Assembly: GCA_040752695.1 (NCBI GenBank)
Contig: JBFMGO010000014.1
Location: forward strand, 13,673 to 77,672
Direction: 5' to 3'
Length of the DNA: 64,000 nucleotides
From: a bacterium
GTDB lineage: Bacteria; SZUA-182; DTGQ01
The notes under the pieces are model-generated. The model made no database searches, was not told the origin of the DNA, and was given only the letters and a program-made list of their open reading frames with translations. The first letter of the stretch is position 1. The number at the start of each line of letters is the position of its first letter. Positions 7,607 through 21,671 of the stretch are shown in pieces. The translations under genes were made by a program, and so were the position numbers.

Positions 7607-7612
7607 TGAGCC

Positions 7613-8416
7613 ATGAGTATGAAACGAATTGGTCTTTTGATGGATACTTCGCGGTGCCTGGCCTGCCGGGCCTGCCAGGTGGCCTGCAAGCAATGGAACA
7701 AACTTCCTGCTGAGCCGAAAGAATCCTGGAAAACCAGAGGCAGCTATGAAAATCCTGCCGACCTTTCTCCGGTCACCTGGACGCGAGTGAGGTTCACTGA
7801 ATATGAGCAGCATGGCGGCGGGGTCGAGTGGCTTTTTCGCAAATTGCAGTGCATGCAGTGCCAGGACGCCACCTGCCTGAAAGTATGCCCTGAGAAAAAG
7901 GCTCTTTATCGGAACCAGGATGGATTGGTTGTTCTTGACAGCGCCTATTGCACGGGATGCGGATACTGCACCCAGAACTGTCCCTTTGAAATTCCCCGCT
8001 TCGATGCCAAAGAAAGAAGAACCTTCAAGTGCAATATGTGTTATGACCGCATCGCCAATGGCCTGATCCCGGCCTGTGCCAAAGCCTGTCCTGCACAGGC
8101 GATCCAGTTCGGCCCGCGAAATGAACTGATTGAAAAGGCCCATCAGCGCATTCAGGCTCTGAAAGGAAAGGGATTCCCGGAGGCTTCACTTTACGGAGAG
8201 AATGAGTGCGGCGGCCTTGGGGTAATATATATTCTGAAATATGGCCGGAGCAAGTATGAGGGGCTGCCTGCTGATCCCAAAGTGCCCCTGTCGGTCAAAC
8301 TGTGGAAAGACTGGCTCAAACCCGTGGGACTGGCCTCATTTTTAGGCGGACTTGGCTTTGTGGTCTTCCATTACGTCCTGCACGGGCCAAAGATTATTGA
8401 AAAGGGAGGTGATTGA
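7613..8416 (+). CDS. fdnH: Formate dehydrogenase iron-sulfur beta subunit
   Basis: Four Cys-cluster motifs (CLACRACQVAC, CMQC..C..C, CTGCGYC..C, CNMC..C..C); C-terminal TM anchor. Confidence 0.93.
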   Translation: MSMKRIGLLMDTSRCLACRACQVACKQWNKLPAEPKESWKTRGSYENPADLSPVTWTRVRFTEYEQHGGGVEWLFRKLQCMQCQDATCLKVCPEKKALYRNQDGLVVLDSAYCTGCGYCTQNCPFEIPRFDAKERRTFKCNMCYDRIANGLIPACAKACPAQAIQFGPRNELIEKAHQRIQALKGKGFPEASLYGENECGGLGVIYILKYGRSKYEGLPADPKVPLSVKLWKDWLKPVGLASFLGGLGFVVFHYVLHGPKIIEKGGD

Positions 8417-9063
8417 TCATGGCTGATTATTCTTCTGAGCTGAACCTGGTTAAGGTTTCCAACTGGTTTGAACGCCTGTCCCATACGGTTTTGGCCATCA
8501 GTTGGCTGCTCCTGGTCTTTACGGGCCTGGCTTTCTATTCCAAAAAGTTTGCCCTGTTCGGAGAATTTTTCGGCGGCCTTCGAGCCACTGTGCCGGTGCA
8601 TAATTATGCCGGCCTTGTTTTTCTGTTCTCGGTAGTGATGATATTCTTTGCCATGTTTAAGGAATCGGCCAAAATTGACAGCGATGATATCAAATGGGTA
8701 CTGTGTGCAGGCGGCTATCTGTGGCCAGCCAAAGCGCCCGAATCAGGGCGGTTCAATACGGGACAAAAAGGGATGTACTTTTTCACGGTCATTATGGGTA
8801 TCATTATGGGCGTGACTGGCTGGACCATGTGGCATGCCCCGACCACCTCTTATAATAAGGCGTGGGTATCTATCTGCTATCCGGTCCACTCTCTTGGCGG
8901 GATTCTCTTTTTTTCTGCCTGGATAGTTCATGCCTATTTCGGATCGATCTGCAACCCGGGCAGCATCGAGGCCATAACTCATGGATGGGTATCCAAGGCA
9001 TGGCTGCGGCTTCAGCATGGGAAGTGGTTCAAAGAGCATGTCCCGGTGAATAAAAAGATGTAA
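8413..9063 (+). CDS. fdnI: Formate dehydrogenase cytochrome b (gamma) subunit
   Basis: Four TM helices; heme His residues (ERLSH, VHNY, VHSL, VHAY); GRFNTGQK motif. Confidence 0.92.
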   Translation: MIMADYSSELNLVKVSNWFERLSHTVLAISWLLLVFTGLAFYSKKFALFGEFFGGLRATVPVHNYAGLVFLFSVVMIFFAMFKESAKIDSDDIKWVLCAGGYLWPAKAPESGRFNTGQKGMYFFTVIMGIIMGVTGWTMWHAPTTSYNKAWVSICYPVHSLGGILFFSAWIVHAYFGSICNPGSIEAITHGWVSKAWLRLQHGKWFKEHVPVNKKM

Positions 9064-9086
9064 GAGCCTGTGATAAGCCTACCCCC

Positions 9087-9130
9087 AAATCCCTCCTCCC
9101 CCCTTTTCTAAAAGGGGGGAGGAGGGATTT
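9087..9130 (+). terminator. Perfect 21-bp inverted repeat after fdnI (terminator / CCCCCTTT-AAAGGGGG repeat)
   Basis: AAATCCCTCCTCCCCCCTTTT-CT-AAAAGGGGGGAGGAGGGATTT followed by TT. Confidence 0.7.
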
Positions 9131-9222
9131 TTAACATAGAGTCCAATTAAGCTTTGCACACTATGTGGATACTTTTCAGGTTTTGGCTGAATTTTCCATG
9201 GGGATCGGGGATTCGTGAACGA

Positions 9223-9252
9223 TTGACAGTTCCATGAATGATGGAGTATACT
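9223..9252 (+). promoter_or_regulatory. Putative sigma-70 promoter for the Lrp/trp-like cluster
   Basis: TTGACA-18 bp-TATACT. Confidence 0.55.
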
Positions 9253-9369
9253 GGGTTTCTAATAGAAAAAGGTATTCCCATCATTATGTTTATTTCACAA
9301 TATTTATTATCACATACCAGCTTTTATCGACTTTAGCACCTTTTCCTTGACAATAGAAGGAGCGCTATC

Positions 9370-9645
9370 ATGATTACATCGGTTGTAATGATTACGTGTG
9401 AGGTGGGTAAGGTTCACCAGATCGCAGAGGATCTGGTGAACCTGGATGGAATTGCCGAGGTGTACTCTATATCCGGTGAGTACGATATCATGGCCATTAT
9501 CCGGGTGAAGGAGTACGATTCTCTGGCCAAGCTGGTATCACAGGATATCGCCGGTCTTGATGGCATCACCATGACCAACACCCACATGGCCTTTCGCTGC
9601 TACTCGAAGCATGATATGGAGAGAATGTGGTCGGATTTTCTCTAG
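9370..9645 (+). CDS. Lrp/AsnC ligand-binding (RAM) domain protein, no HTH
   Basis: EVYSISGEYDIMAIIRV motif; 91 aa; AGGAG RBS. Confidence 0.88.
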   Translation: MITSVVMITCEVGKVHQIAEDLVNLDGIAEVYSISGEYDIMAIIRVKEYDSLAKLVSQDIAGLDGITMTNTHMAFRCYSKHDMERMWSDFL

Positions 9646-10523
9646 GATTTGATGGCGGTATTGATGATGGCGCATTTCCCGGTGATAATAGATGCTCGCC
9701 TGATAATGGCTCGATACCCAGGGATAGCGGCCGCTCAGTTGATGATGGCTCATCTCCCAACCATGGTAGCCACTCGCTCTCAGGCGCGATCCTGAAGGCG
9801 CAGGAGCGGGGCGAGGCAGCGGTGATTGTCGATATCAAGCCGGTTTCTCCCCGGGACGGCGACCTGATAGGAAACCGTGATCCGGCGGAGCTGGCCAGGT
9901 CACTGGAGAGAGCCGGTGCATGCGCCTTATCGGTGGTGACAGAACCCCGGCATTTTGGCGGCAGCATCAGGACGCTGGCCGAGGTTGTCCGGGCGGTTTC
10001 TTTGCCTGTTCTCAGAAAGGATTTCATCTCCGGTCTCGATCAGATCGATGAGTCTCGAAAAGCAGGCGCATCCAGTGTGCTGCTCATTCTGGCCACTATT
10101 CCCGCAAGCTTAGTGTCTCCTTTGTATCAGCGCTGCCGCGAACTGGGTCTGGAGGCGGTAGTCGAGATACACAACCGGACGGAGTTCGATCGGGCGATGG
10201 CCTTGTCTCCCGCCCCCGCCATTATCGGCATCAATAACCGGGATATCCTGAACCTTGAGAAAGATGGCGGCAGCGTGCTCCTGACCGAGGAACTGGCCCC
10301 ATTAGTCCCCGACTCGGTGGTAGTAATTTCGGAAAGTTCCCTGACTACACCTGACGATATAGCTCGCGCCATCAGAGCGGGCGCGGACGCCGTGCTGATA
10401 GGCACTGCCATTTTGAAATCGGACGATCCAACTGCACGCCTTGCGGTACTCAGTCAGGCTGCGAGGATGGCCTGCAGGGAGAATAATCCATTGACCAGAT
10501 TGCCCGGTGTCGGAAGACCATGA
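9627..10523 (+). CDS. trpC: Indole-3-glycerol-phosphate synthase-like protein (divergent TrpC homolog)
   Basis: DIKPVSP, LSVVTEPRHFGGS, VLRKDF, VVEIH, GINNRD, ISESS, LIGTAI; GTG start after GGAG; low-complexity N-terminal 50 aa. Confidence 0.8.
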   Translation: MVGFSLGFDGGIDDGAFPGDNRCSPDNGSIPRDSGRSVDDGSSPNHGSHSLSGAILKAQERGEAAVIVDIKPVSPRDGDLIGNRDPAELARSLERAGACALSVVTEPRHFGGSIRTLAEVVRAVSLPVLRKDFISGLDQIDESRKAGASSVLLILATIPASLVSPLYQRCRELGLEAVVEIHNRTEFDRAMALSPAPAIIGINNRDILNLEKDGGSVLLTEELAPLVPDSVVVISESSLTTPDDIARAIRAGADAVLIGTAILKSDDPTARLAVLSQAARMACRENNPLTRLPGVGRP

Positions 10524-11212
10524 CCAGAGTCAAGATATGCGGTCTCATGAGCCGCACCGATATCGATATGGCTGTTGCTGCCGGAGCTGATTCCTTAGGA
10601 TTCGTGACCGAATATCCGATTTCTGTACCGTGGAACATCACCCGCCAAAAGTCTGCCGAACTGGTGGCGCAGAGCCCGCCCTTTGTGACCACTACTGCGG
10701 TCGTGGGTGGTGAAGTGGCGCAGATGGTGGGCATAGCCCAGGCGGTCAGGCCGCATTTTTTGCAGCTTCATGGCGATGAAACCCTGGAGGAGATCCAGGC
10801 TGTCTGTGATGCGCTTACTGGTACCGGCATCAAGGTGTTGAAGGCGCTTCGGATCGACGTGCAGACGGGAAAAGCGCAGTTTTCCATTCAGGACCCGGTT
10901 GAAGCCTGCCGCGTTCTGGCCCGGTCCGGCCTGGCCGGACTGGTTATCGATTCCAAGACCGCAAGCCGCCCCGCTGGCACGGGTGTTGCACTGGACTGGC
11001 GTATGGTCAAAACGGTGTCAGACAGTATCCTCCTGCCCCTCATCCTGGCCGGCGGGCTGACTGCACGCAATGTCGGTCAGGCCATTGCTCTGGTGCGGCC
11101 CTATGCCGTGGACGTAATCAGCAGCGTGGAAAGGGAGCCAGGCGTGAAAGACGAACAACTGATCAATGAGTTTGTCAAGGCTGCAAAAGCAGCCTTGCTC
11201 CCTGCAAATTGA
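10520..11212 (+). CDS. trpF: Phosphoribosylanthranilate isomerase-like protein
   Basis: VKICG, LQLHGDE, VIDSK...GTG, ILAGGL, AVDVISSVE. Confidence 0.85.
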   Translation: MTRVKICGLMSRTDIDMAVAAGADSLGFVTEYPISVPWNITRQKSAELVAQSPPFVTTTAVVGGEVAQMVGIAQAVRPHFLQLHGDETLEEIQAVCDALTGTGIKVLKALRIDVQTGKAQFSIQDPVEACRVLARSGLAGLVIDSKTASRPAGTGVALDWRMVKTVSDSILLPLILAGGLTARNVGQAIALVRPYAVDVISSVEREPGVKDEQLINEFVKAAKAALLPAN

Positions 11213-11265
11213 TAAGCTGTTAAGCTGAGCGGGCTTTCTATCACTATAAACTTTAGGATAGTTCC

Positions 11266-11994
11266 ATGAAAAGACCGTATACATTTATGCTGGTGGCTGT
11301 CAGCCTGGACGGTAAAATATCTCCCAGGCGGCGTCCGGGACAGCCCAACCCGATTGGCCCATCCCTCATCGATGCGGATATCATGAAACTGCATAATTCC
11401 CAGCGCGCGAATGCAGATGGCATTATGGTGGGCCTCAACTGCATCCTTTTGGACGATTCGCGCCTGACCCTGCGTGAGGGCCGTCCGGGGCACCAGCTTA
11501 CGCGCATCGTGCTGGATGGATTGGCCGAAGTCCCTCCGACGGCAAAAGTGCTGAATAGGGATGCACCCACGATTATGGCTGTAACAGAGGATGCACCCAT
11601 CGAGCGGGTCCGGGCCTTCCAAGATGCCGGAGCTCAGATTGTGACTGCCGGACACGGCAAATATGTGGATCTTGTACTGCTCATGAATGCCTTATACGAG
11701 CAATTCGGAATCAGGCGGCTTTTAGTTGAGGGTGGCGGAACGGTGCACCAGTCGATGATCAGCGCCGGCCTTTACGATGAGATTCATCTGATCATCTGCC
11801 CCTTTGTCATTGGCGGCTCCGCATCCATCACACCTGTGGAAAGAAGCTCTTTTTGGCCAAAGGAAAAGGTACCGACCTTTCAACTGGTGAAGGTCGATGT
11901 CCTCGGTGATTATCTCTCTGTAATCTACAAACCAGGTCCGGATACTTCCTGTACGTTATCGGCCACTGCTGAATGTGAGTTACCGGCTACCTAA
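11266..11994 (+). CDS. RibD C-terminal-domain reductase (Rib7/ArfC-like), stand-alone
   Basis: SLDGKI, DGIMVG, RIVLD, LLVEGGG, GLYDEIHL..CP..IGG; no deaminase domain. Confidence 0.85.
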   Translation: MKRPYTFMLVAVSLDGKISPRRRPGQPNPIGPSLIDADIMKLHNSQRANADGIMVGLNCILLDDSRLTLREGRPGHQLTRIVLDGLAEVPPTAKVLNRDAPTIMAVTEDAPIERVRAFQDAGAQIVTAGHGKYVDLVLLMNALYEQFGIRRLLVEGGGTVHQSMISAGLYDEIHLIICPFVIGGSASITPVERSSFWPKEKVPTFQLVKVDVLGDYLSVIYKPGPDTSCTLSATAECELPAT

Positions 11995-12075
11995 ATGAAT
12001 ACCTTTGACTGAAGGATTTCAATTGAAGGACCGAATGACTTCAAATGAAGGATTAGAATGAAGGAGTAAACGGGT

Positions 12076-13191
12076 ATGGAGACAAAAGAGGATCGTTGGA
12101 GAAAGTTTGGTGCCATTGTTGTCCGTCTAACGCGTGGTGAAAATATTACCAGGGAGGAAGCGCGGGAGTGCTGGAGGCAAATCTGCGAGGAGGAGCAGAG
12201 CGATCTGCAGCAGGGCGGTTTTATCGGTGCGCTCAAGTCCAAGCCTGAGACACCCGAAGAGGTGGCCGGAACCTTTGAGGCCCTCTACGAGCACGATACT
12301 CTGAAGGTGCAGGTAAATACGCCTGAGCCCCTGATCGATAACTGCGGCACAGGCGCTGATACCCTGAAAACAATGAACATCAGTACGGGAGCTGCCATTG
12401 TTTCATCCTCCCTTGGCCTGTATGTGGTCCGGCACGCTGCACGGGCGATTTCATCCAACTGTGGGGCCATCGATGTCATAGAGGCACTTGGCGTGAACGT
12501 GGAATCAACTCCCGATATCCCGAAAAAGAGCATCGAAAACGCAGGCATCTGCGCCTGGAATGCCTTTTTACCCACGGTGCACCCAAAGACCCTGGCCAGG
12601 GTTTTGTCACAGATCCGGTTTGGTTCTGCCATTAACCTGGTGGGGCCGCTCCTGAATCCCACCATGCCGACCTTTAAAGTTATGGGTGTACCGACCCTGG
12701 AAATGATCGAGATCGAGATCAAGACCCTGCGGGAGCTGGGTTTCAGGCGGGCATTCGTCATGCACGGGCTGGACGATGAGTCCGGAAAAGGCATGGACGA
12801 GTTATCTACTCTTGGAACCACTCACGTGGCCGAGTTGTCCGAGGATGGATCGATCGAGAATTACACCCTGACTCCCGAAGATTTCGATCTGAAGAGGGCG
12901 AGGTTTGAGGACGTGGCTTCAAGCCGTGACGTACAAAAAGACGCTCTGGCTCTGCTCCGGGTGCTGGCAGGCAAAGACACGGGACCCCGGCTTGATATCG
13001 TCTGTCTGAATGCAGCTCCGCTGCTTTACATCACAGACAAGGCCAAGGATCTGAAAACGGGCCTCACGATGGCCAGGGAAGCGGTGGCAGATGGTCGCGC
13101 CCTGAACAAACTGCGCGATTGGGTCACCTGGCAGAACGAAAAGCCGGAGGATGGCCTTCCGAAACTGGAAGAGATGATCAGCAGGCTTTGA
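12076..13191 (+). CDS. trpD: Anthranilate phosphoribosyltransferase-like protein (divergent TrpD homolog)
   Basis: DNCGTGAD, NIST, GPLLNP, GMDE, LNAA; atypical RHAAR in place of KHGNR. Confidence 0.8.
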   Translation: METKEDRWRKFGAIVVRLTRGENITREEARECWRQICEEEQSDLQQGGFIGALKSKPETPEEVAGTFEALYEHDTLKVQVNTPEPLIDNCGTGADTLKTMNISTGAAIVSSSLGLYVVRHAARAISSNCGAIDVIEALGVNVESTPDIPKKSIENAGICAWNAFLPTVHPKTLARVLSQIRFGSAINLVGPLLNPTMPTFKVMGVPTLEMIEIEIKTLRELGFRRAFVMHGLDDESGKGMDELSTLGTTHVAELSEDGSIENYTLTPEDFDLKRARFEDVASSRDVQKDALALLRVLAGKDTGPRLDIVCLNAAPLLYITDKAKDLKTGLTMAREAVADGRALNKLRDWVTWQNEKPEDGLPKLEEMISRL

Positions 13192-13268
13192 TCCGGAGGA
13201 CAAACGGATCATTGATGCCAAACGGGTAATATCGAAGGTAAGCAGGTAACGAGGGTAAGCAGGTAACC

Positions 13269-15482
13269 ATGCAGATAAGATATTCCAGTTGCTATTTTTG
13301 TACAAGTAAAGGCTGTGCCATGAAGGTCTATGTCGAGGGTGACCGGATAAAGAGAGTAGCTGTCGATACCAAGGCCCCGGTTACACCCAAGGCATTTTGT
13401 GTACGGCCGACCCTGGCCAAAGAGTATCAGGAGCATCCTTTCCGGTTGCACTATCCCTTGAAGCGCAGGGCAGAGCGCGGCGCAGATCAGTGGGAGCAGA
13501 TATCATGGGACCAGGCCCTCGACGAGATAGCGGAAAAACTGCAAAATCTTCGCAATCGCCATGGCGCTGAAACTCTGGCCACCAGTTCGGGCACGGGCCG
13601 TGGTGCGTGGGATTTTGCCAAAGGCCGTTTTATGAACCTGTTCGGCAGCCCTAACCGCTTCGGTGCGGTCACGATCTGCTATGGCCCCCGCAGCATGGTC
13701 TGGTTCACTACGTTTGGCGGGTCGGTCGTGTCAGATCAAAAGCCTGGCAAGACGCGGATGATGGTGCTCTGGGGCCGCAATCCCCACGAGGGTGGGCCAT
13801 CGTCGTGGCACAGCTTTAAAAAGGCAGGTCAGGCAGGCGCGTTGACCATGGTCGTCGATCCCCGGTGCACCGAAGCGAGCCGCACGGCAGACTGCTGGGT
13901 GCAGCTTAAGCCGGGCACGGATGCGGCCCTTGCCCTTGGCCTTATGCATATCATCATTGAAGAGGGGCTCTACGACCGGGAGTTTGTCGAAAACCATACC
14001 TTCGGATTCCCTCAGCTCAAAGAAAGGATTAAGGAATATCCGCCGGAAAAGGCAGCCCGGATCACGGGTCTTTCCGAATACAAGATACGCGAGACAGCCA
14101 GGTTTTTTGCGGCGAATCAGCCATCGACCATGGTCATCGGCGTGGCGGCAGAGCACAGCTCTCCAAACAGCATCCAGGCGATTCGCGCCATCAATATTCT
14201 TTTCGCTCTATGCGGCAGTATTGACAAAGCAGGCGGCAGCCTGATCGCAGGCCCGTGCTCAGGATTCATACCGGATGCTGCCATGGAGCTGAATCATATG
14301 CTGACTCCTGAACAGCGAAAGAAACAGATCGGCAGCGACCGCTTCCGTTACCTGAGTTATCCCGGATGGGAACTGGTCGAAGAGCAACTTCGCAAAAAAT
14401 GGGGCGACCGCCATCCCGCCGCTGTCTATCTGAACTGCCTGGCCCATGCACCCAGCGTCTTCCGGGCTATGCTGACCGAAAAGCCCTATCCGGTAAAAGC
14501 CCTGATTGTCTCCGCCAGTAACCCCCTTCTCTCCTATGCCAATACCAGGCTCGTCTATCAGGCGCTCAAGGCCACAGAGCTTCTTTTGACCTTTGACATT
14601 ACCTGGACGCCTACGGCTCGTATCTCAGACTACGTGCTGCCTGCCGCCTGCTGGATGGAGCGGCCCGACATGGGCAACTTCGCTTCAGTGGGTGCATATC
14701 CCCTGGTTCAGATCGGCGAGGCAGCCCTCCCAAGCCGTGTTCCGGGCAAGTACGAGCGGTTGAACGACTATGAATTCTGGCGGGAACTTGGCCTTCGACT
14801 GGGACAGAGCGAGTACTGGCCATGGAAAACTTTCGAGGAGGTATGGGAATACAGGCTGCGTGAAATAATGGATAGACGAGGTGTCGAGACGCTCCCGGAA
14901 TTTATTCGTCAGCAGCGCTGGGAGATCGATCCCCCAAAAGCCGGCCTGTGCAGTCAGGGGCCGCTGGCGACTCCATCAGGTAAAGTGGAACTTTATTCTA
15001 CCATTTTCGAGAAGCTGGGTTACGATCCGCTGCCCGGTTATCTGGAGCCGGTCGAGCCTGAGGATATTGTGCGCAAATATCCTCTTTTGAATATCAGCGG
15101 CTGTCGCGTCATGCCGTATCACCACAGCGAGTTTCGCCACGTCAAGGGCTTTCGCCAGCGCCAGCCTGACCCAATCGTCGAAATCCACGTGGACCTTGCC
15201 CGGCGCAAAGGCATTGCTGACGGTGACTGGGTTTGGATCGAATCACCGATCGGACGGGTAAAGCAGCGTGCACGTCTGACGACTTCATTCGCCCCTGAGT
15301 ATATCGTTACTCAGCACTCCTGGTGGTTTCCGGAAATGGCCGGTGAAGAACCATTCGTGCACGGGCTCTGGGAGTCGAACATCAATGTCATCACGGACGA
15401 TGACCCTGCCAAGTGCGACCCCATCTCCGGTGGCTGGCCATTCAAGGGCCAGTACCTCCGCTGCCGCATCGAGAAGGTATGA
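13269..15482 (+). CDS. Molybdopterin (bis-MGD) oxidoreductase, acetylene-hydratase-like family, cytoplasmic
   Basis: CYFCTSKGC..C Fe-S motif; ISWDQALDEIAEKL, RFMNLFGSPN, TICYG, PGTDAAL, DYVLP, TPSGKVELYS; no Tat signal. Confidence 0.9.
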   Translation: MQIRYSSCYFCTSKGCAMKVYVEGDRIKRVAVDTKAPVTPKAFCVRPTLAKEYQEHPFRLHYPLKRRAERGADQWEQISWDQALDEIAEKLQNLRNRHGAETLATSSGTGRGAWDFAKGRFMNLFGSPNRFGAVTICYGPRSMVWFTTFGGSVVSDQKPGKTRMMVLWGRNPHEGGPSSWHSFKKAGQAGALTMVVDPRCTEASRTADCWVQLKPGTDAALALGLMHIIIEEGLYDREFVENHTFGFPQLKERIKEYPPEKAARITGLSEYKIRETARFFAANQPSTMVIGVAAEHSSPNSIQAIRAINILFALCGSIDKAGGSLIAGPCSGFIPDAAMELNHMLTPEQRKKQIGSDRFRYLSYPGWELVEEQLRKKWGDRHPAAVYLNCLAHAPSVFRAMLTEKPYPVKALIVSASNPLLSYANTRLVYQALKATELLLTFDITWTPTARISDYVLPAACWMERPDMGNFASVGAYPLVQIGEAALPSRVPGKYERLNDYEFWRELGLRLGQSEYWPWKTFEEVWEYRLREIMDRRGVETLPEFIRQQRWEIDPPKAGLCSQGPLATPSGKVELYSTIFEKLGYDPLPGYLEPVEPEDIVRKYPLLNISGCRVMPYHHSEFRHVKGFRQRQPDPIVEIHVDLARRKGIADGDWVWIESPIGRVKQRARLTTSFAPEYIVTQHSWWFPEMAGEEPFVHGLWESNINVITDDDPAKCDPISGGWPFKGQYLRCRIEKV
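15140..15480 (+). repeat. 341-bp direct repeat, copy 1 (3' end of the Mo-enzyme gene)
   Basis: Identical on visual comparison to 16446..16786 (offset 1306). Confidence 0.93.
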
Positions 15483-15578
15483 GGTGCTGCCTATTCTCTC
15501 TGAATAGAGCAGGGGCTCCGGCAGTGATCAATGATCCGGTCTGCTTTTTTGAATTTCACAAATGAGAGGAAGATATTT

Positions 15579-16001
15579 CTAGAAGGGGACAATTACCTTA
15601 ATGCCTGGGATCTTCTCAAAATCTTTCCTGTTTTCTGTAATAATTTCGCTCAGACCATTTTCCTTCATACAGGCCACAATCAGTGCATCCCATAAATGAA
15701 TTCCATATTCGGCAACGTAGTCCAGAGCACTCAAAAAGGTATCAACATCTCTATCGATAATCCTCCAGCTTTCTGATTTTAAAAAATCTTCCACGATAGA
15801 TTTTGCCACTGATATATCGACAGGGTTTTCGACTTTTCTGGTGATAACAGCGAAGAACTCCATAAGGTTTTGCAGGCAGACAGCACCTCCGCCCTCCTTC
15901 CAGTTTTGCTTGAGAATATCTCTTGAAACCTCATGCCTCTTTCCTTCAGAAGTATCGTAAGCATACACGAGGATGTTTGTGTCGATAAGCTTATCTGGCA
16001 T
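15579..16001 (-). CDS. vapC: PIN-domain (VapC-family) toxin
   Basis: LIDTNILVYA, LMEF, LWDALI, ITENRKDF. Confidence 0.92.
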   Translation of the reverse strand: MPDKLIDTNILVYAYDTSEGKRHEVSRDILKQNWKEGGGAVCLQNLMEFFAVITRKVENPVDISVAKSIVEDFLKSESWRIIDRDVDTFLSALDYVAEYGIHLWDALIVACMKENGLSEIITENRKDFEKIPGIKVIVPF

Positions 16002-16206
16002 ATAAGTCTTCGCGTCTTGAGTAGAGTTTTTTACCTAAAGAAAAACCTTCATCCAGAAGTTTTAATTGTCTTTCTTTTATTTCATCTTGCTCCTTTTTAT
16101 TCATAACCTTTAGAGTAACGACCGCTTGTGTCCCGGCAGGAAAACCTGTTTCTTTATCGAGACGGACGATATTGCCTTCAATCACTCCTTTATAAACCTT
16201 TTTCAA
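15991..16206 (-). CDS. Cognate antitoxin (DUF104/VapB-like); TTG start at 16206 preferred, ORF open to 16257
   Basis: KGVIEGNIVRL N-terminus and RREDLYAR C-terminus; overlaps the PIN gene start. Confidence 0.7.
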   Translation of the reverse strand: MKKVYKGVIEGNIVRLDKETGFPAGTQAVVTLKVMNKKEQDEIKERQLKLLDEGFSLGKKLYSRREDLYAR

Positions 16207-16430
16207 AGACTTCACCTCCTCTACAGGCAAGAAGATCACCGCTTCAAAATTTACCATATTGGATTATCCTATTTATAGAATATACTATTTCCTCTGGGAG
16301 CTGTAAAGGAATTTCATGCTGGCCAATCGCAGGTAAATCACACAAGGCCAATTGGTAAAAGTATAGATCTGGCTGCCCTGCAACTTCACGGTTTTTCCTC
16401 TTGCTTTTTCTTTTCCATCGGGTCATCTGA

Positions 16431-16791
16431 AGCGAGTTTCGCAATCGTCAAGGGCTTTCGCCAGCGCCAGCCTGACCCAATCGTCGAAATCCACGTGGAC
16501 CTTGCCCGGCGCAAAGGCATTGCTGACGGTGACTGGGTTTGGATCGAATCACCGATCGGACGGGTAAAGCAGCGTGCACGTCTGACGACTTCATTCGCCC
16601 CTGAGTATATCGTTACTCAGCACTCCTGGTGGTTTCCGGAAATGGCCGGTGAAGAACCATTCGTGCACGGGCTCTGGGAGTCGAACATCAATGTCATCAC
16701 GGACGATGACCCTGCCAAGTGCGACCCCATCTCCGGTGGCTGGCCATTCAAGGGCCAGTACCTCCGCTGCCGCATCGAGAAGGTATACTGA
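16431..16791 (+). pseudogene. Duplicated 3' fragment of the Mo-enzyme gene (repeat copy 2, 16446..16786)
   Basis: Exact copy of the C-terminal ~113 codons without a real start; small indel at the 5' junction. Confidence 0.88.
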
Positions 16792-16838
16792 ATAAAACAC
16801 GTAAGTCTCATTTCCGAGAAAGTTCTCCTTCGAAAAGA

Positions 16839-16888
16839 TTGACTTCAGCCGATTAGACAGCTATGATATTAATAGCTCATATGGGCTA
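16839..16888 (+). promoter_or_regulatory. Sigma-70 promoter plus palindromic operator of the DinJ-YafQ-like TA pair
   Basis: TTGACT-17 bp-TATGAT; near-palindrome TAGCTCAT/ATGGGCTA at 16873-16888. Confidence 0.6.
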
Positions 16889-16931
16889 CTATTATCATAG
16901 CTATTCTATAAGAGATAGGAGAATTGGGCCA

Positions 16932-17192
16932 ATGAGTAAAACATCAACAGTGAGAGCCAGAATTGAGCCTGGCTTAAAAAAAGAAGTGGAAGATCTTTTT
17001 CATAAATTGGGATTATCGACCACAGAAGCAATTAATATTTTTTACTGCCAGGTAAAAATGAGGCAGGGATTACCATTCCCTGTTGCCCTTCCTAATGAGG
17101 AAACAAAAAGAATATTTGAAGATACTGATAAAGATCAAAACGTTATTCATTGTTCAGATGTAGATGAATTGTTTAAGAAGCTCAAAATATAA
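16932..17192 (+). CDS. dinJ: RelB/DinJ-family antitoxin
   Basis: VRARIEPGLK, LGLSTTEAINIF, GLPF, PNEET; AGGAG RBS before ATG 16932. Confidence 0.9.
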   Translation: MSKTSTVRARIEPGLKKEVEDLFHKLGLSTTEAINIFYCQVKMRQGLPFPVALPNEETKRIFEDTDKDQNVIHCSDVDELFKKLKI

Positions 17193-17461
17193 TGTTGAAA
17201 CCCGGCTATACCAAACAGTTTCAAAAAGATTTGAAAAGGATGGAAGGGCAGGGAAAGAATATCGAAAAGTTAAAATCTATTATTATCCAACTTGTTAATC
17301 AAAAACCGCTCAATGAAGGACACAGAGATCATAAGCTTATTGGTAATTATAGAGATAGACGCGAATGCCATATCGAATCTGATTGGCTGCTTATTTATAA
17401 GACAACAGAGGAAGAGATTATTTTTGAAAGGACCGGATCACATTCTGATCTTTTCAAGTAA
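17192..17461 (+). CDS. yafQ: YafQ-family (RelE superfamily) mRNA interferase toxin
   Basis: QFQKDLK, RDHKLIG, RECHIESDWLLIY, RTGSHSDLF. Confidence 0.93.
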   Translation: MLKPGYTKQFQKDLKRMEGQGKNIEKLKSIIIQLVNQKPLNEGHRDHKLIGNYRDRRECHIESDWLLIYKTTEEEIIFERTGSHSDLFK

Positions 17462-17501
17462 TTTTGACGGTGTTCCTTTCCAGTAATACTGTAGAGTAAA
17501 G

Positions 17502-18896
17502 ATGCTTATGAGCGAGATGCTTATGAATGACAGCCTTGACAGCCTGCCCATAGGATGGAGTCTGGAATCATCGGGAGAAGGGCTCGGCAGAGTGCTTCGC
17601 TACCGTTGGGTCATCTTCTCCATTCTGGCTTTCAGTTATATCCTTGTTTACTTTCACCGGCTGTGCCCGGCTGTGGTTGCCGGAGACATGATGCGGGACC
17701 TTCACGCCACCGGCGTTTTGCTGGGACTGCTTGGCTCTGCCTACTATTACCCTTACGCCCTGATGCAGCTTCCCGCCGGGCTTCTTGCAGATTCATGGGG
17801 ACCGCGCAAGACCATTACCACCTTCTTTGCGGTCGCCTGTGCGGGTTCGCTTATCCTGGGCTGGGCGCCGTCGCTTTCCTGGGCGATTTTCGGACGGACC
17901 CTGGTCGGGATCGGGGTATCGATGCTGTTTGTCCCTACCATGAAGATTCTGGCCGAGTGGTTCGACAGGCAGGAATTCGCCAGCATGGCTGGAATCCTGA
18001 TCGCCATGGGGGGCGTCGGATCAATTACCGCTACTTCGCCGCTGGCCTACATGAGCAGGGCAGTAGGATGGCGACTGTCGTTCACCATTGTGGGTATCAT
18101 CACCCTGATCCTGGGCATTTTACTCTGGCTCATGGTGAGGGACAGGCCCCAGGACATGGGCTGGCCATCCCCCCTGGAGAACGGCGCTGATGATGAGCGG
18201 CCAGCCGGCATCGGGCTGTTCGAGGGAGTAAAAAACGTGCTTTCGTATGGCCCTTTCTGGCCTCTGGCTATCTGGTTCTTTTTCGGCTGCGCCGTATTTT
18301 TCTCCTTTATCGGCTTATGGGGAGGCCCTTACCTTATGCAGGTCTATGGCCTGAGCAAGCCCCAGGCAGGCAATATCCTGATGATGTCGGCCTTCGGGAT
18401 GGTGGTCGGGAGCCCTATTTTGAGCTTTCTCTCAAACCGGGTGTGCAAAGGCAGAAAGCCGCTTTTGATGATCTCAAGTTTCATGACGGTCCTCATCACC
18501 GCTGCCTTGACTTTTCTCACTGACAGGCTGCCCATTCCCGGCCTTTACCTGCTCTGCTTTTTCACGGGTGTGTTCGTCAATGCCATCGTGGTGATCGGCT
18601 TCACAGCGACTAAAGAGCTTTTTCCCGTCAGCATTGCCGGGACATCCACAGGACTGGCCAATTTTTTCCCCTTCCTGGGAGGTGCCCTTCTTCAGCCCTT
18701 CATGGGATATCTGCTCGAGCGGTATGGAAAGGCCGGTGAATCCTTCACCGCAGCCGGTTACAGCCGTGCCTTCATGGCCATGTTCGTCTGTGCAATAATC
18801 ACCTTTGCGGCCAGCATCTTCATCAAAGAAACCCTCATCAGGGAACCTCTCATCTCAGGGAACCTCAAAGAGGGCTTGAGAAGGAAGGGTGAGTAA
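17502..18896 (+). CDS. MFS transporter (sugar-phosphate-permease-like group)
   Basis: About 12 TM helices; motif A GLLADSWGPRK; YFHR in TM1. Confidence 0.9.
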   Translation: MLMSEMLMNDSLDSLPIGWSLESSGEGLGRVLRYRWVIFSILAFSYILVYFHRLCPAVVAGDMMRDLHATGVLLGLLGSAYYYPYALMQLPAGLLADSWGPRKTITTFFAVACAGSLILGWAPSLSWAIFGRTLVGIGVSMLFVPTMKILAEWFDRQEFASMAGILIAMGGVGSITATSPLAYMSRAVGWRLSFTIVGIITLILGILLWLMVRDRPQDMGWPSPLENGADDERPAGIGLFEGVKNVLSYGPFWPLAIWFFFGCAVFFSFIGLWGGPYLMQVYGLSKPQAGNILMMSAFGMVVGSPILSFLSNRVCKGRKPLLMISSFMTVLITAALTFLTDRLPIPGLYLLCFFTGVFVNAIVVIGFTATKELFPVSIAGTSTGLANFFPFLGGALLQPFMGYLLERYGKAGESFTAAGYSRAFMAMFVCAIITFAASIFIKETLIREPLISGNLKEGLRRKGE

Positions 18897-19160
18897 TTTA
18901 CCCTCCCTACATACCTCCAGGGGGTAATTGCCGGTTTTTTCTCTTGCTTTTTCTTTTTCATTTTGAGAACATAATTAACTTAACTGCGACAGATTCCTGC
19001 CATCCGCGTAAAGGAGGTCAGATTCCAGGAGCCAGAACGCGCAGAGCAGGAGCCAGAGCCCGGAGTGAGAGAGGGGGGGGAGGAGAGCCGCTCCCTTTCA
19101 TGCGAATATTTTGGTATTCCCTTGAGAGTTTCCTGGAAACTCGCCGGAGATAATCGGTAC

Positions 19161-20300
19161 ATGTTTTTGCTTTTCCTTTTCGGGGGATTTTCCACAGGAT
19201 TTTGCCTGATCATATATGGAATATATATCCTGGCCTTTATCAAAGGGAGAAAGTATCTTCCCATCGACGAACTAAAGGAGTATGTGCCTGTTTCCGTGCT
19301 TATTCCGGCAAGGAATGAAGAAAAGGTCATGGAGAGGAAGATCAAGAACCTGGCTGAAATCGATTATCCCCGCGAACTGCTTCAGGTCGTTGTCGTTGAT
19401 GATGCATCGACTGATCAAACCAGGGAGGTCGCTCAGGCAGCCCTTTCCCGATATCGTATTTCCGGCATGGTTATTTCAAACGACACCAGAAAAGGTACAA
19501 ATTACAATTATAATCATGGGATGAAGTACGTATTCCATGATGTTGTCGTAACCACCGATGCCGATGTGACCTTGGAAGGTCAGGCGCTGAAGAGAATGGT
19601 GGCTGTTTTACAGAATGACGATAAAATCGGGGCCGCCTGTGGGGAATTGGTGCCGCTCATTGACGGTCAGTATATTTCGACAGGGGTCGAGAAGCCCTAC
19701 CGCGATGTTTTTGGAAAAATGTGCTCCTGGGAAAGCGCACTGCACAGCACCTACTGCTTTAACGGCCCGCTGATCGCCCTGAAAAAGCAGGCTTACAGCC
19801 CAATGAATCCGCACAAGGGAGCAAGTGATACCAATATGGCGCTGTCCGTTATACGCAATGGCTATCAGGCCAAGTACATTTCCTCGGCAAAATTCTACGA
19901 ATGGGTTCCAACCAAGCTGGCTCAGCAGAAAAAACAGAAGATTCGCCGGGCATCCCGGCTTCTGGAATCCACCTGGGCGGCCAGGGGGATGCTGTTCGAT
20001 AAGAAATACGGAAAGTTCGGTATGGTGGTACTGCCTCTTCGGATGGCCATGCTCTTTTTGGTACCTGCCCTGTGCCTGGTTTCCCTGGTCTTTTTTGGCA
20101 TGCTCTCTTTGCGGTTCCTCGGTATTCTGGGTTTGTTTCTCTATCTCCTTATTTTATTGGGAGTTATCGTGCTGGGAGCTTACCGTACCAACTTCCTGAC
20201 ATCTTTCATCTGGCATCAATACTATTTGCTCGCCGGTTTTGTTAACATGATCAAACCCATGCACATCTGGGAGTCTGTGGATAGAACGGCTTTACATTAA
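19161..20300 (+). CDS. GT2 glycosyltransferase (CESA/IcaA-like, membrane-anchored)
   Basis: VLIPARNEE, VDDASTD, TDAD, QKIRRA; N- and C-terminal TMs; ATG 19161 after GGAG. Confidence 0.88.
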   Translation: MFLLFLFGGFSTGFCLIIYGIYILAFIKGRKYLPIDELKEYVPVSVLIPARNEEKVMERKIKNLAEIDYPRELLQVVVVDDASTDQTREVAQAALSRYRISGMVISNDTRKGTNYNYNHGMKYVFHDVVVTTDADVTLEGQALKRMVAVLQNDDKIGAACGELVPLIDGQYISTGVEKPYRDVFGKMCSWESALHSTYCFNGPLIALKKQAYSPMNPHKGASDTNMALSVIRNGYQAKYISSAKFYEWVPTKLAQQKKQKIRRASRLLESTWAARGMLFDKKYGKFGMVVLPLRMAMLFLVPALCLVSLVFFGMLSLRFLGILGLFLYLLILLGVIVLGAYRTNFLTSFIWHQYYLLAGFVNMIKPMHIWESVDRTALH

Positions 20301-20360
20301 TACGCTTTCTTGACGTAATATATCGGCATGACCATGAAGATATGAAGCGATTATGAAGAT

Positions 20361-21644
20361 ATGAAGCAGCAGGCGCAAAAGATTTTGATTATCTCTCTAT
20401 CGGGTATCGGAGACCTTATTTTATTCACTCCAGCCATTCCCTTGCTGCGAAAGAGGTTTCCTGAGGCAGAGATTTCCCTTCTCGTGAAAAAAAAGGAAGC
20501 GGCAAAAGTGCTCAAAGGGAATCCTTATATTGATAAAATCATTGTCTTTGATCCGCAAAAAGCATCGATAAAAGAGAACATCCTGTTTTATTTCAGTATG
20601 CGAAAAAGAAAGTATGACATCAGCCTTTCCACCTTTCCGGCCATGACTTTTCTCAATAATCTCTCCACCTTCGCCATCGGCGCCAGGAAGCGCTGGGTCT
20701 ATAAAACAGACCACCCCCTGCTCTCTTTCGATTTTTTACAAAACAGGCGTATCCCTTACCAGCACGGTAAACACCGGATTGATTATAATCTGGCTCTGGT
20801 CAAGGCCCTTGCCCGTGAGCAGGAATCGGGCAGTGAGAAAAAACCGGGCACTGAAGATCCGATTGAACTTGAAACAAACCCTTTGGATCAGGTGTATATT
20901 TACGGGAGAGGTCACGCTGGCTGCGGAAGTTCCGGCGACGGCAATAACGGCAATAATGGTAATAACGGTATTCATGGGAATAAAAGAAACAGCAGAAAAT
21001 ATGGAAGCAATGGAAACGGCAGGGGTAATGGAAGTGATGGAAGGGATGAAAGATACGGAAATTACCAAAAGGGCCAATCCGGGCAAATCCTGCTGCGGCT
21101 TGGCGCAGACCCCCTGGAGTTGTTCATTGGGATTCATGCCGGTTCAGGAGACAACCAGCCATTTAAGAGGTGGGGTGAAGAAAAATTCGCCCTGCTGGCT
21201 GATAAGATTCAAAAAGAGTTCCCCTTTCGCGTCATTCTGCTTGGGGGACCGGAAGAGGAAGAGCTGTCGAGAAGAGTTGCCAGGCATATGGCAACCACTC
21301 CTCCCGTAATTGCTGCAGGAAGAACCTGCATCGAAGAGACCCTGGCCCTTATCAGTCGGTGTGAACTTTTGATCAGCAATGATTCAGGGGTCATGAACAT
21401 GGCTTTTGCCCTGCGCAAAAAGATCCTGGCCATCTTTGGCCCCACCGATGATACCTGTACCAGGCCTCTGGGCAAAAACGATGTCGTTATTTTAAAGGAA
21501 TTCCCCTGCAAACCGGCATGCAGAAAGAGATATCTCTACAGCAAGGAGTGCAATTTCGGCTACCGATGTCTCAAGGAGCTTTCGGTGGATGAAGTGTGGA
21601 ACGTTGCGCGGGGTGTATTGGAATCCATGGTGAGACAGGAATAG
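20361..21644 (+). CDS. GT9 glycosyltransferase (heptosyltransferase-like) with Gly/Asn-rich insertion
   Basis: GIGDLIL..P, HAGSG..KRW, SNDSG.MNMA, AIFGPT. Confidence 0.9.
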   Translation: MKQQAQKILIISLSGIGDLILFTPAIPLLRKRFPEAEISLLVKKKEAAKVLKGNPYIDKIIVFDPQKASIKENILFYFSMRKRKYDISLSTFPAMTFLNNLSTFAIGARKRWVYKTDHPLLSFDFLQNRRIPYQHGKHRIDYNLALVKALAREQESGSEKKPGTEDPIELETNPLDQVYIYGRGHAGCGSSGDGNNGNNGNNGIHGNKRNSRKYGSNGNGRGNGSDGRDERYGNYQKGQSGQILLRLGADPLELFIGIHAGSGDNQPFKRWGEEKFALLADKIQKEFPFRVILLGGPEEEELSRRVARHMATTPPVIAAGRTCIEETLALISRCELLISNDSGVMNMAFALRKKILAIFGPTDDTCTRPLGKNDVVILKEFPCKPACRKRYLYSKECNFGYRCLKELSVDEVWNVARGVLESMVRQE

Positions 21645-21671
21645 AAATTTTGAAGCCTGGGTGTACGATGA

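Follow-up and report, generated by a model that had tools for sequence, protein, structure and literature searches.

A conserved operon of TrpC-, TrpF- and TrpD-like proteins, a RibD-type reductase and an acetylene hydratase-like enzyme as a candidate pathway from an amine other than anthranilate to an N-heterocycle

A 64,000-nucleotide stretch of a bacterial genome (GenBank assembly GCA_040752695.1, contig JBFMGO010000014.1, positions 13,673 to 77,672; hereafter the window) carries, between its positions 9370 and 15482, six genes on the same strand that code for a RAM-domain protein, a TrpC-like protein (TrpC2), a TrpF-like protein (TrpF2), a RibD_C reductase (RibDC), a TrpD-like phosphoribosyltransferase (TrpD2) and a molybdenum/tungsten enzyme related to acetylene hydratase (the Mo enzyme). 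From the comparisons described below, we consider it somewhat better than an even chance that these genes encode a dedicated pathway, dependent on 5-phosphoribosyl 1-pyrophosphate (PRPP), for making an N-heterocycle out of an amine different from anthranilate. The block would constitute a self-contained, horizontally transferred operon, separate from the tryptophan and riboflavin pathways of the cell. The window corresponds to contig C14 of the source genome (G000; 6.05 Mb, 96.6% complete).

The six genes travel together across phyla

We searched 40 related genomes with TrpC2 and found a copy with 65-70% identity in three of them, two from the same genus (G001 and G002) and one from another family of the same order (G010); in all three the six genes are in identical order. 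A scan of one genome per species, covering 185,579 species and using an alignment of four RibDC reductases as the query, returned 18 loci, 16 with RibDC orthologs (63-79% identity) and two with distant RibD_C proteins (35% and 24%). One of the latter, L051, was judged from the sizes of its open reading frames (ORFs) only to be an ordinary rib operon, and was set aside as a relative. The complete six-gene order is present in 11 of the 16 ortholog-bearing loci (L035, L036, L038, L039, L041, L043 and L045-L049; L035 is the G001 contig and L036 the G010 contig), while L037, L040 and L042 are cut by contig ends and L044 is broken by 400 N. The remaining locus, L050, from a gammaproteobacterial metagenome-assembled genome (MAG), has TrpC2-TrpF2-RibDC-TrpD2-Mo, and the RAM gene, the only one missing, was not found at 8280-8600 of that locus even with relaxed tblastn, so the pathway need not include the RAM protein. 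A RibDC ortholog in another context was found in 0 of the 16 loci. Counting the window and G002, the complete block is present in 13 genomes.

The surroundings of the block are not conserved. Flanks differ at every locus examined, including all four of G000, G001, G002 and G010, and no flanking partner recurs in more than two loci according to Pfam assignments of 16 flanking ORFs plus 49 of the 95 listed ORFs from 12 loci, which together cover the flanks of 15 loci. Neither trpE, trpG, trpB nor trpA ever joins the block. The operon-bearing records belong to Phycisphaerae, Lentisphaerae, Desulfobacterales, Ca. Desulfatibia, Syntrophobacteria, Desulfuromonadales and Gammaproteobacteria, and the source names of TrpD2 relatives add Gemmatimonadota, so that the record labels give at least five phyla. 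In the window's own phylum, 4 of the 20 genomes in the collection carry an ortholog of the Mo enzyme. Over all loci, same-genus genomes included, identity to the window protein is 72-91% for TrpD2, 68-85% for the Mo enzyme, 63-81% for RibDC, 58-79% for TrpF2, 55-72% for TrpC2 and 56-85% for RAM. In the TrpD tree described below, the Lentisphaerae operon copy groups with Desulfuromonadales copies with a support of 100. A preliminary description of this DNA had proposed that the Trp homologs belong together with the reductase and the Mo enzyme, and had counted a lack of conserved linkage against that proposal. We found the Trp homologs to be strictly linked with both across phyla, in the same order in 13 genomes and with differing flanks.

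Two loci of this set have peculiarities of their own. In L038 (Phycisphaerae MAG), and in that locus only, genes of the DAHP (3-deoxy-D-arabino-heptulosonate 7-phosphate) synthase and radical-SAM families lie divergently just upstream of the operon (6342-8107, minus strand); they may supply an aromatic precursor in this lineage, or lie there by coincidence. In L037 (QIEJ01000224.1, 917-2010) TrpD2 is matched by two pieces that overlap and lie in different frames, one for residues 1-146 and one for 151-371, which suggests a frameshift or a sequencing error in a short contig.

Canonical tryptophan and riboflavin genes are found elsewhere in the genome

Family searches of the whole source genome gave two matches each for the synthase of indole-3-glycerol phosphate (IGPS; 308.9 bits on contig C15 and 188.1 bits for the operon copy on C14), phosphoribosylanthranilate isomerase (PRAI; 148.9 bits on C15 and about 107-109 on C14), TrpD (426 bits on C15 and 280.6 on C14) and RibD_C (189.2 bits on C58, in the 402-aa frame of a bifunctional ribD, and 128.4 on C14). 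The higher-scoring copies make up a canonical trpE-G-D-C-F cluster on C15, the only contig with chorismate-binding enzymes; TrpA is encoded on C23 only, with a TrpB candidate beside it. The operon's TrpC2 is 35% identical to the canonical TrpC of the same genome, and a canonical TrpC copy, about 35-42% identical to the TrpC2 query, is also present in G001, G002 and G010. The same holds in five operon-bearing genomes of other lineages (G041-G045), where a canonical TrpD (387-418 bits) accompanies the operon copy (279-288 bits) in five of five, a canonical full-length IGPS (253-275 bits) accompanies TrpC2 (184-196 bits) in five of five, and a RibD of bifunctional size accompanies RibDC in four of five. 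When the window was searched by tblastn with the genome's own TrpE, TrpG, TrpA and TrpB candidate, no match was obtained at E ≤ 1e-3.

The preliminary description had called the trp-like cluster non-canonical and had noted the absence of trpE, trpG, trpA and trpB from the window, and it would have counted against its proposal a finding that these are the only copies of trpD, trpF and trpC. Both statements agree with our searches: a separate canonical trp operon (C15, C23) and a canonical ribD (C58) are present, and canonical trpD, trpC and trpF all stand on C15.

The phosphoribosyl-acceptor site of TrpD2 departs from that of anthranilate phosphoribosyltransferases

TrpD2 shares its fold and Pfam family with canonical TrpD, keeps the GTGxD, N-I-S-T and GMDE motifs and passes the curated model TIGR01245 (280.6 bits against a cut-off of 199.05; 426 for the canonical copy of G000). 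It is only 33-38% identical to canonical TrpDs, however, and differs from them where the acceptor binds. PMC5537072 describes KHGN as the conserved anthranilate-binding and catalytic motif of TrpD, Arg159 of TkTrpD (Mtb Arg193, Ss Arg164), on helix alpha-8, as binding anthranilate and being essential for catalysis, and GTGGD and the D-E motif as binding PRPP and metal. We aligned TrpD2 with TkTrpD (5noe) by phmmer; the chain numbering in the alignment reproduces the published GTGGD(74-78), KHGN(101-104) and Arg159. In TrpD2, R119-H120-A121-A122 stands at KHGN and Leu177 at Arg159. The PRPP loop is preserved as G91-T-G-A-D95, which matches GTGGD at four of its five positions, and both this loop and GMDE are kept in 15/15 orthologs.

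The changes at the acceptor side are equally invariant. All 15 operon TrpD2 proteins have RHAA (within RHAARA) where the canonical TrpD of G000 has KHGN, and ARVLSQIRFGS where the latter has the arginine-bearing GPRKEIGIRT. Likewise in 15/15, GA(I/V)D replaces GSAD, five residues are inserted before GMDE and the C terminus is extended. The best 120 clusters of TrpD2 homologs at 90% identity are all at least 75% identical to TrpD2 and, where a name is given, are called solely 'anthranilate phosphoribosyltransferase'; the ESM Atlas clusters are likewise auto-named.

TrpF2 and TrpC2 keep their catalytic residues in altered frames

TrpF2 is far above the Pfam threshold for its family and below the cut-offs of all 13 matching NCBIfam models (best 151 against 215). 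It shares the fold of canonical TrpF together with the catalytic pair: Cys7 (KICG) and Asp144 (DSKT) align to Cys7 and Asp126 of the Thermotoga maritima enzyme (1lbm), the general base and general acid, respectively, of that enzyme, and both are kept in 17/17 orthologs. The T. maritima enzyme has Arg36 in an S-P-R segment and this arginine binds the carboxylate of anthranilate. In TrpF2 the S-P-R segment is replaced: Pro37 aligns to Arg36, and the segment reads (I/V)xVPWN with three extra residues in 17/17 orthologs, as against ESPRKV in the canonical copy. An insertion of about 12 residues is also common to 17/17. The earlier suggestion of an amine other than anthranilate fits these observations, as the parts of TrpD and TrpF that bind anthranilate in the canonical enzymes are rebuilt in every ortholog.

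TrpC2 scores below the cut-offs of all 14 matching NCBIfam models named for IGPS (best 210.9 against 284). Its Pfam match covers profile positions 43-251, compared with 1-254 for the canonical copy (309 bits), and thus lacks positions 1-42, the region of the N-terminal helix alpha-0; in the operon copies of G041-G045 the match starts at positions 9-35. The GTG at 9627 is the sole in-frame start, the first 45 or so residues are not conserved, and the ORFs of the orthologs begin a few residues before the barrel. While the N-terminal lid of canonical IGPS is missing, its Lys/Lys/Glu/Asn motifs are shared: DIKP.SPRDG, LRKDF, VE(I/V)H, GINNRD and SES are kept in 16 orthologs, and K71, K131, E180 and N203, the counterparts of K53, K110, E159 and N180 of SsIGPS, are kept in 16/16, with an Asp at the equivalent of E51, also in 16/16. 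According to PMC7681013, K53, K110, E159 and N180 of IGPS are essential, helices alpha-0 and alpha-00 help to enclose the substrate, and a canonical enzyme turns over the decarboxylated substrate about 1000 times more slowly. Such slow turnover implies that ring closure without the carboxylate is chemically possible but needs adaptation. Since folds and catalytic motifs are kept, the reaction types of the three Trp-like proteins are probably the same as in tryptophan synthesis, namely N-phosphoribosylation, Amadori rearrangement and cyclodehydration. Unlike the tryptophan pathway genes, the operon copies are always tied to the RibD_C reductase and the Mo enzyme and never to trpE, trpG, trpB or trpA.

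RibDC resembles stand-alone ribosylamine reductases

RibDC scores 163.7 against a cut-off of 186.45 for TIGR01508, and 147.9 against 150.15 for the ribD_Cterm domain model. It has no deaminase domain, its closest structures are 2azn and 6p8c (about 125 bits), and it aligns over its full length with the reductase of Methanocaldococcus jannaschii (MjaRED) and related Rib7-type reductases. Like these, it is a stand-alone RibD_C protein with the motifs SLDGK, R..DGIMVG, DD.RLT and EGGG. It differs from them by a longer, invariant loop, SPRR.PGQPNP.GPS, after SLDGK, by staying below the curated cut-off, by having no rib gene nearby in the operon and by occurring in a genome that has its own ribD. 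The archaeal and fungal riboflavin reductase Rib7/MjaRED (2,5-diamino-6-ribosylamino-4(3H)-pyrimidinone 5'-phosphate reductase) reduces an N-ribosylamine 5'-phosphate, which is the type of bond made by TrpD chemistry.

The Mo enzyme has the architecture of acetylene hydratase but lacks its catalytic Asp

The best solved relative of the Mo enzyme is the acetylene hydratase (AH) of Pelobacter acetylenicus (2e7z; 428 bits over residues 8-723), followed by thiosulfate reductase with 228 bits. Its Fe-S motif starts at residue 8, which leaves no room for a twin-arginine translocation (Tat) signal, so the enzyme should be cytoplasmic. C8, C11, C16 and C44, which bind the [4Fe-4S] cluster, and the metal ligand C137 are kept in 15/15 orthologs, and the cysteines and the monomer-type cytoplasmic architecture are common to the Mo enzyme and AH. 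In AH, Asp13, next to a cluster cysteine, is the catalytic residue, and Ile113, Ile142 and Trp179 belong to a small hydrophobic ring around the substrate. The Mo enzyme, by contrast, lacks the catalytic Asp and has an altered ring: in 15/15 orthologs there is Thr/Ser12-Ser13 with a one-residue insertion at the Asp13 position, and Gly110, Tyr138 and Gly/Ser176 occupy the three ring positions compared. To judge from these residues, the Mo enzyme is AH-like in architecture but cannot work as an AH, and its pocket is expected to hold a larger, different substrate than acetylene.

AH-like paralogs that are 38-40% identical to the Mo enzyme, have His-Gly at the Asp-Ile positions of AH and lie outside any trp-like context occur in two genomes of the same class (G016:C73:1751-3832 and G017:C92:10910-12994). 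The surroundings of the G016 copy were considered as a clue to function and discarded, its only neighbors being HEAT-repeat and glycosyltransferase genes.

The RAM protein is a ligand-binding domain without a DNA-binding domain

The first protein of the operon matches PF01037 over residues 6-76, and its NCBIfam matches are only to the C-terminal halves of Lrp-type regulator models. A profile of 15 orthologs matched the stand-alone RAM protein 2djw of Thermus thermophilus over residues 1-84 (E 1.4e-22). Cys10 is invariant, and F-R-C-Y-S-K-H stands near the C terminus of most of the 15 orthologs but not in every one. The typical ligands of RAM domains are amino acids. Like the stand-alone RAM proteins (2djw; 2cvi and 2e1a from Pyrococcus), which have about 90 residues, the operon protein consists of the RAM fold only; it differs from them in being the product of the first gene of an enzyme operon and in being translationally coupled to TrpC2.

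TrpD2 belongs to a clade of variant TrpDs, some of them encoded beside cobamide genes

We searched the 50%-identity representatives exhaustively with TrpD2 and obtained relatives of about 370 residues graded at 73, 53, 47 and 44-37% identity, followed by canonical TrpDs of about 340 residues at 33-38%. The variant relatives share (K/R)HGA in place of KHGN, SQIRFG, the insertion before GMDE and a C-terminal W..QN extension. No second domain was found in five of odd length (P0124, P0134, P0140, P0145 and P0147). A TrpD tree of 68 rows, a quick maximum-likelihood reconstruction with Shimodaira-Hasegawa-like approximate likelihood ratio test (SH-aLRT) support only, splits 30 canonical TrpDs from 38 variant and operon sequences with a support of 100, P0155, which had been labeled canonical beforehand, falling in the variant clade. 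The TrpD2 sequences of the operon, 16 in all, form one monophyletic group (SH-aLRT 100), which is placed within the variants.

Scanning metagenomes with the aligned variants gave 80 loci, 57-84% identical to P0123, a variant sequence whose named cluster members are Methanothrix. None of the 80 (L053-L132) contains a match to TrpC2, TrpF2, RibDC or RAM. A gene for a Zn-dependent dehydrogenase (Zn-ADH) lies directly upstream of the variant TrpD in 7 of the 8 metagenome loci scanned for it, and archaeal CobT (TIGR00303, above cut-off) adjoins the variant TrpD in both of the loci scanned with NCBIfam. A third TrpD-like gene is present in three of the genomes G041-G045 (G042, G043 and G045); in G045 and G042 it stands among cobamide genes (Table 1), and in G043 its context is uninformative. 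The partner dehydrogenase of the variant clade resembles threonine and polyol dehydrogenases. The cobT-linked variant TrpDs thus belong to the same clade as TrpD2 and are each paired with an NAD(P)-dependent oxidoreductase gene, but they are 37-53% identical to TrpD2 and their neighbors are cobamide nucleotide-loop genes rather than genes for TrpF, TrpC, RibD_C or AH-like proteins. To judge by this gene context, the TrpD-like protein and the Zn-dehydrogenase of cobamide clusters possibly carry out an undescribed step in the formation or activation of the lower ligand; a description of cobT linked with a TrpD-like gene was not found in the full-text literature, most subscription journals lying outside the search. 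In the tree the operon clade has cobT-linked branches on either side. These sister groups suggest that the variant clade originally used, as its acceptor, a base akin to the lower ligands of cobamides.

We also looked at the cobamide genes of the operon-bearing genomes. G000, G001 and G002 have cobT; they have one, one and two ThiC-family genes, respectively, and the single gene of G000 and G001 leaves no spare copy for a Bza-type benzimidazole synthase. CobT was not found in G010 (operon-bearing, 88% complete) nor in the other five genomes of its family. A correlation with cobamide synthesis was rejected, as among 21 relatives neither the presence of CobT nor the number of ThiC-family genes follows the distribution of the operon. 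In G002, cobT (G002:C36:85188-86198) is on the same contig as the operon, about 11.5 kb away and not adjacent; it does not occur near the operon elsewhere, and its position in G002 is probably a coincidence.

Layout and surroundings of the locus

We scanned the ORFs between 5237 and 22749 with Pfam, and selected proteins also with NCBIfam; every gene named in the preliminary description was found where it had been placed (Table 1). The RAM gene shares its last 19 nt with the start of TrpC2, and TrpC2 shares 4 nt with TrpF2. No more than a match to the consensus speaks for the promoter-like site upstream of the RAM gene, and the 11 promoters counted in the region fall within the range of shuffles (mean 8.8, standard deviation 3.2). 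An Rfam scan of 8900-19200 (E ≤ 1) gave chance-level matches only, with no riboswitch upstream of the RAM gene, and 15 operon leaders of 120 nt each have nothing in common except the ribosome-binding site.

Table 1. Features of the window and examples of variant TrpD loci discussed in the text (positions are those of the window unless a locus is named)
Feature	Position	Strand	Basis or remark
Terminator-like hairpin	9101-9126		between upstream formate dehydrogenase genes and operon
Promoter-like site, TTGACA-18-TATACT	9223-9252	+	11/12 match; 5' of RAM gene
RAM (Lrp/AsnC ligand-binding), 91 aa	9370-9645	+	PF01037, E 4e-16; no helix-turn-helix
TrpC2, IGPS-like (beta-alpha)8 barrel	9627-10523	+	PF00218, 188 bits
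TrpF2, PRAI-like barrel	10520-11212	+	PF00697, 108.6 bits (threshold 22.7)
RibDC, RibD_C (dihydrofolate reductase-fold) reductase	11266-11994	+	PF01872, 128.6 bits
TrpD2, TrpD-like phosphoribosyltransferase	12076-13191	+	PF00591 + PF02885; TIGR01245
Mo enzyme (Mo/W-bis-pyranopterin guanine dinucleotide), 737 aa	13269-15482	+	Pfam Molybdop_Fe4S4, Molybdopterin, Molydop_binding
PIN toxin	15579-16001	-	PF01850, E 1e-13
Presumed antitoxin, 88 aa	15991-16257	-	partner of PIN toxin
Duplicate of 3' end of Mo gene	16431-16786	+	direct repeat of 15126-15480
98-aa ORF, a duplicated 3' end of the Mo gene	16495-16791	+	PF01568 (Molydop_binding)
RelB	16863-17192	+	PF04221
YafQ	17192-17461	+	PF15738
Major facilitator superfamily (MFS) transporter, anion:cation symporter-like	17502-18896	+	PF07690
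CobT-ADH-TrpD-like, archaeal	L065, 5746-9113		Methanothrix-type contig
CobT-ADH-TrpD-like, archaeal	L107, 6937-10393		Methanothrix-type contig
TrpD-like beside ADH_N-CobT fusion	L140 (G042:C2), 8017-11450		Desulfobacterales MAG
CobS-CobT-Zn-ADH-TrpD-like, CobU next door	L142 (G045:C20), 7525-11973		Lentisphaerae MAG

Downstream of the operon, the 3' end of the Mo gene has been duplicated, with 99.4% identity over 356 nt by blastn (a repeat of about 355 nt) and 96% amino acid identity between the protein encoded by the duplicate and residues 619-737 of the Mo enzyme. The two direct repeats bracket the PIN toxin-antitoxin module and the Mo gene itself is intact. Neither this module nor the RelB/YafQ pair is present between the Mo and MFS genes in G001 and G002, and the direct repeat marks a recent insertion or duplication that these two genomes do not have. 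The GC content is 0.555 in the operon, 0.557 in the MFS gene, 0.416 in the stretch 15483-17501 and 0.494 in the whole window.

In G001 and G002 the MFS gene (73-80% identity) lies directly 3' of the Mo gene, and among the loci with at least 1.5 kb visible downstream it follows the operon only in the window's own genus (3 of 13); none was found after the operon in G010. Its best NCBIfam subfamilies are PgtP and the D-galactonate transporter, both far below cut-off. The transporter is therefore a genus-specific addition to the operon. The preliminary description had the cluster import its substrate, a claim that does not extend beyond this one genus, as the conserved unit comes without a transporter; an endogenous substrate is, on this ground, at least as likely.

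The genes on either side belong to other systems. Upstream, at 4622-9063, lies an operon for a periplasmic formate dehydrogenase of the N type, with the catalytic subunit (4622-7606, twin-arginine signal SRRGFLK) followed by the 4Fe-4S and cytochrome b subunits. The frame of the catalytic subunit contains a TGA at 5186-5188, whose surroundings (ARV-TGA-HSS) are typical of selenocysteine, and the ORF finder captures only the subunit's post-TGA portion. At 19065-22749, 3' of the MFS gene, there are three glycosyltransferase genes (GT2, GT9 heptosyltransferase-like and GT2) which are not kept beside the operon elsewhere and are unrelated to it.

Proposed pathway

By analogy with the families concerned, TrpD2 would use PRPP to phosphoribosylate the exocyclic amino group of a (hetero)aromatic amine that is not anthranilate, most likely one without an ortho-carboxylate, or else an o-diamine or an aminopyrimidine. 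TrpF2 would perform the Amadori rearrangement to a 1-amino-1-deoxyribulose 5-phosphate, and TrpC2 would close a ring on the neighboring ring atom by acid/base condensation and dehydration, the expected product being a fused N-heterocycle with a glycerol-phosphate chain. RibDC may use NADPH to reduce a C=N bond, either in the open-chain ribosylamine, to give the N-ribityl compound, or in a cyclic imine. The Mo enzyme could add water or a hydroxyl to the ring system, or catalyze a two-electron step, before or after the other reactions. The RAM protein would bind a small effector and modulate the enzymes, and it may act on TrpC2, which is translationally coupled to it and has no lid. The preliminary description had pictured an indole analogue or an N-ribityl-aryl compound as the product, the Mo enzyme as supplying or tailoring the ring and the RAM domain as a possible ligand sensor, all of which are conjectural; it did not foresee the distinct TrpD clade of TrpD2 with its cobamide-linked members.

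Supposing that the pathway is a dedicated one, the class of substrate can be narrowed only in part. TrpD2 and TrpF2 have lost the residues that contact anthranilate and its carboxylate, which speaks for a substrate lacking the ortho-carboxylate, for instance a carbocyclic arylamine. GTP cyclohydrolase I chemistry comprises a ribosylamine, an Amadori rearrangement and ring closure; this likeness and the Rib7-like reductase keep aminopyrimidines and o-diamines in play, with a pterin-, flavin-, quinoxaline- or deazapurine-like product. We hold the carbocyclic arylamine and the o-diamine or aminopyrimidine to be equally credible, neither being probable in itself, and some other substrate to be nearly as credible. 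A more specific proposal, which we put forward tentatively and at less than even odds, is that the operon makes a small N-heterocyclic cofactor or redox mediator from PRPP and the non-anthranilate amine. This compound might be a pterin-, quinoxaline- or deazapurine-like ring or else an arylamine with an N-ribityl group, with the Mo enzyme as the last biosynthetic step or as the user of the product.

Several points weigh against a dedicated pathway from a non-anthranilate amine. TrpD2 scores above the cut-off of the curated TrpD model and goes by the name of anthranilate phosphoribosyltransferase in every source. Two of its arginines lie close to the lost Arg position, R175 two residues ahead of it and R181 four residues behind it, and might take over the binding of a carboxylate. 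TrpC2 keeps Arg205 and the hydrophobic residues that line the anthranilate pocket of IGPS, so that a benzene-like ring, and even anthranilate, is possible there. The IGPS residue numbers were mapped onto TrpC2 through sequence motifs. The reductase and TrpF2 are given the same possible substrate, which means that at least one assignment in the order of steps is wrong or that the pathway branches. Nothing constrains the role of the Mo enzyme, and the tree that separates the variant TrpDs has the limits of its quick method.

Alternative explanations

The least improbable of the alternatives, although still an unlikely one, is that the operon serves the salvage or catabolism of an imported aromatic amine or acid, which the MFS protein would take up, the Mo enzyme would convert to the amine and the Trp-like enzymes would feed into indole or tryptophan metabolism or detoxify. 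The anion-type transporter encoded after the Mo gene (immediately so in G001 and G002, beyond the toxin-antitoxin insertions in the window), its GC content, equal to that of the operon, and the patchy distribution among relatives (3 of 40), typical of catabolic or salvage traits, all agree with such a role. But the transporter is confined to one genus (3 of the 13 loci in which downstream sequence is visible), the block has no other transporter and no catabolic gene as a recurrent neighbor, and steps that consume PRPP would be costly for catabolism.

We consider it quite unlikely that the block is a second, specialized tryptophan branch leading from anthranilate to indole-3-glycerol phosphate under another condition or regulation, with the reductase and the Mo enzyme unrelated or auxiliary. 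Such a branch would account for the TIGR01245 score of TrpD2, for the catalytic residues of TrpD2, TrpF2 and TrpC2, all of them kept, and for Arg205 and the hydrophobic pocket residues of TrpC2; the binding of amino acids by RAM domains would suit feedback by tryptophan, and the housekeeping trpB-A on C23 could finish the pathway. What it leaves unexplained is the replacement of KHGN by RHAA and of the essential Arg by Leu in 15/15 orthologs, and of the S-P-R segment of TrpF in 17/17. Canonical copies are moreover present in every genome examined (TrpC in G000, G001, G002 and G010; TrpD and TrpC in G041-G045), no locus has trpE, trpG, trpA or trpB in the block, the linkage is as strict for the reductase and the Mo enzyme as for the Trp homologs, and the TrpD2 clade has contexts other than trp. 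Taken together, the data make a redundant tryptophan module unlikely.

A role in making a cobamide lower-ligand base, or a related component of the corrinoid loop, with TrpD2 having kept the acceptor class of its cobT/cobS-linked relatives, is to our mind just as doubtful as the tryptophan branch. Three cobT-linked arrangements occur in the same TrpD clade, on both sides of the operon clade, and G000, G001 and G002 have cobT, with no spare ThiC copy for a Bza-type synthase in G000 and G001. However, no cobamide gene adjoins the operon at the loci examined, the operon is present in G010, where no CobT was found (88% complete), as none was in five other genomes of its family, and relatives without the operon show the same cobT/ThiC pattern. 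A fused pyrrole product would also have no imidazole-type nitrogen to ligate cobalt, and the link to cobamides is one of phylogenetic neighborhood only.

The conservation data exclude a chance neighborhood of the six genes, and it is extremely improbable that they lack a joint function, whether as chance neighbors or through selfish co-transfer, given their identical order in 13 genomes with unrelated flanks, the start-stop overlaps of RAM/TrpC2 and TrpC2/TrpF2, and the 55-91% identity of all six proteins across phyla.

Implications

The dedicated pathway from an amine other than anthranilate thus remains our preferred reading. We found no description of the operon, or of an acetylene hydratase-like enzyme with trp genes, in the full-text literature, a search that left out most subscription journals. 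The families are all known; what is new, as far as we have checked within that literature, is how they are combined, together with the rebuilt acceptor sites and the separate clade of TrpD. TrpD2 passes the curated TrpD model and its relatives are uniformly named, so metabolic reconstructions would count such genes as tryptophan biosynthesis, and we flag this as a systematic annotation error for genes of the TrpD2 type.

If our reading is correct, TrpD, TrpF and TrpC, which are textbook enzymes of a single pathway, would offer a clear natural case of a pathway segment recruited for new chemistry, and the operon would provide a new metabolite or cofactor for anaerobic sediment bacteria. It would also give the first functional context for an AH-like enzyme that is unable to be an acetylene hydratase. 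The TrpD-like/Zn-dehydrogenase pair of cobamide clusters may bear on the source of the lower ligand in anaerobes without known bza or bluB. Taken with these cobT-linked sister groups, TrpD2 would belong to an overlooked branch of TrpD-type enzymes, annotated as tryptophan enzymes, that builds other rings in anaerobes.

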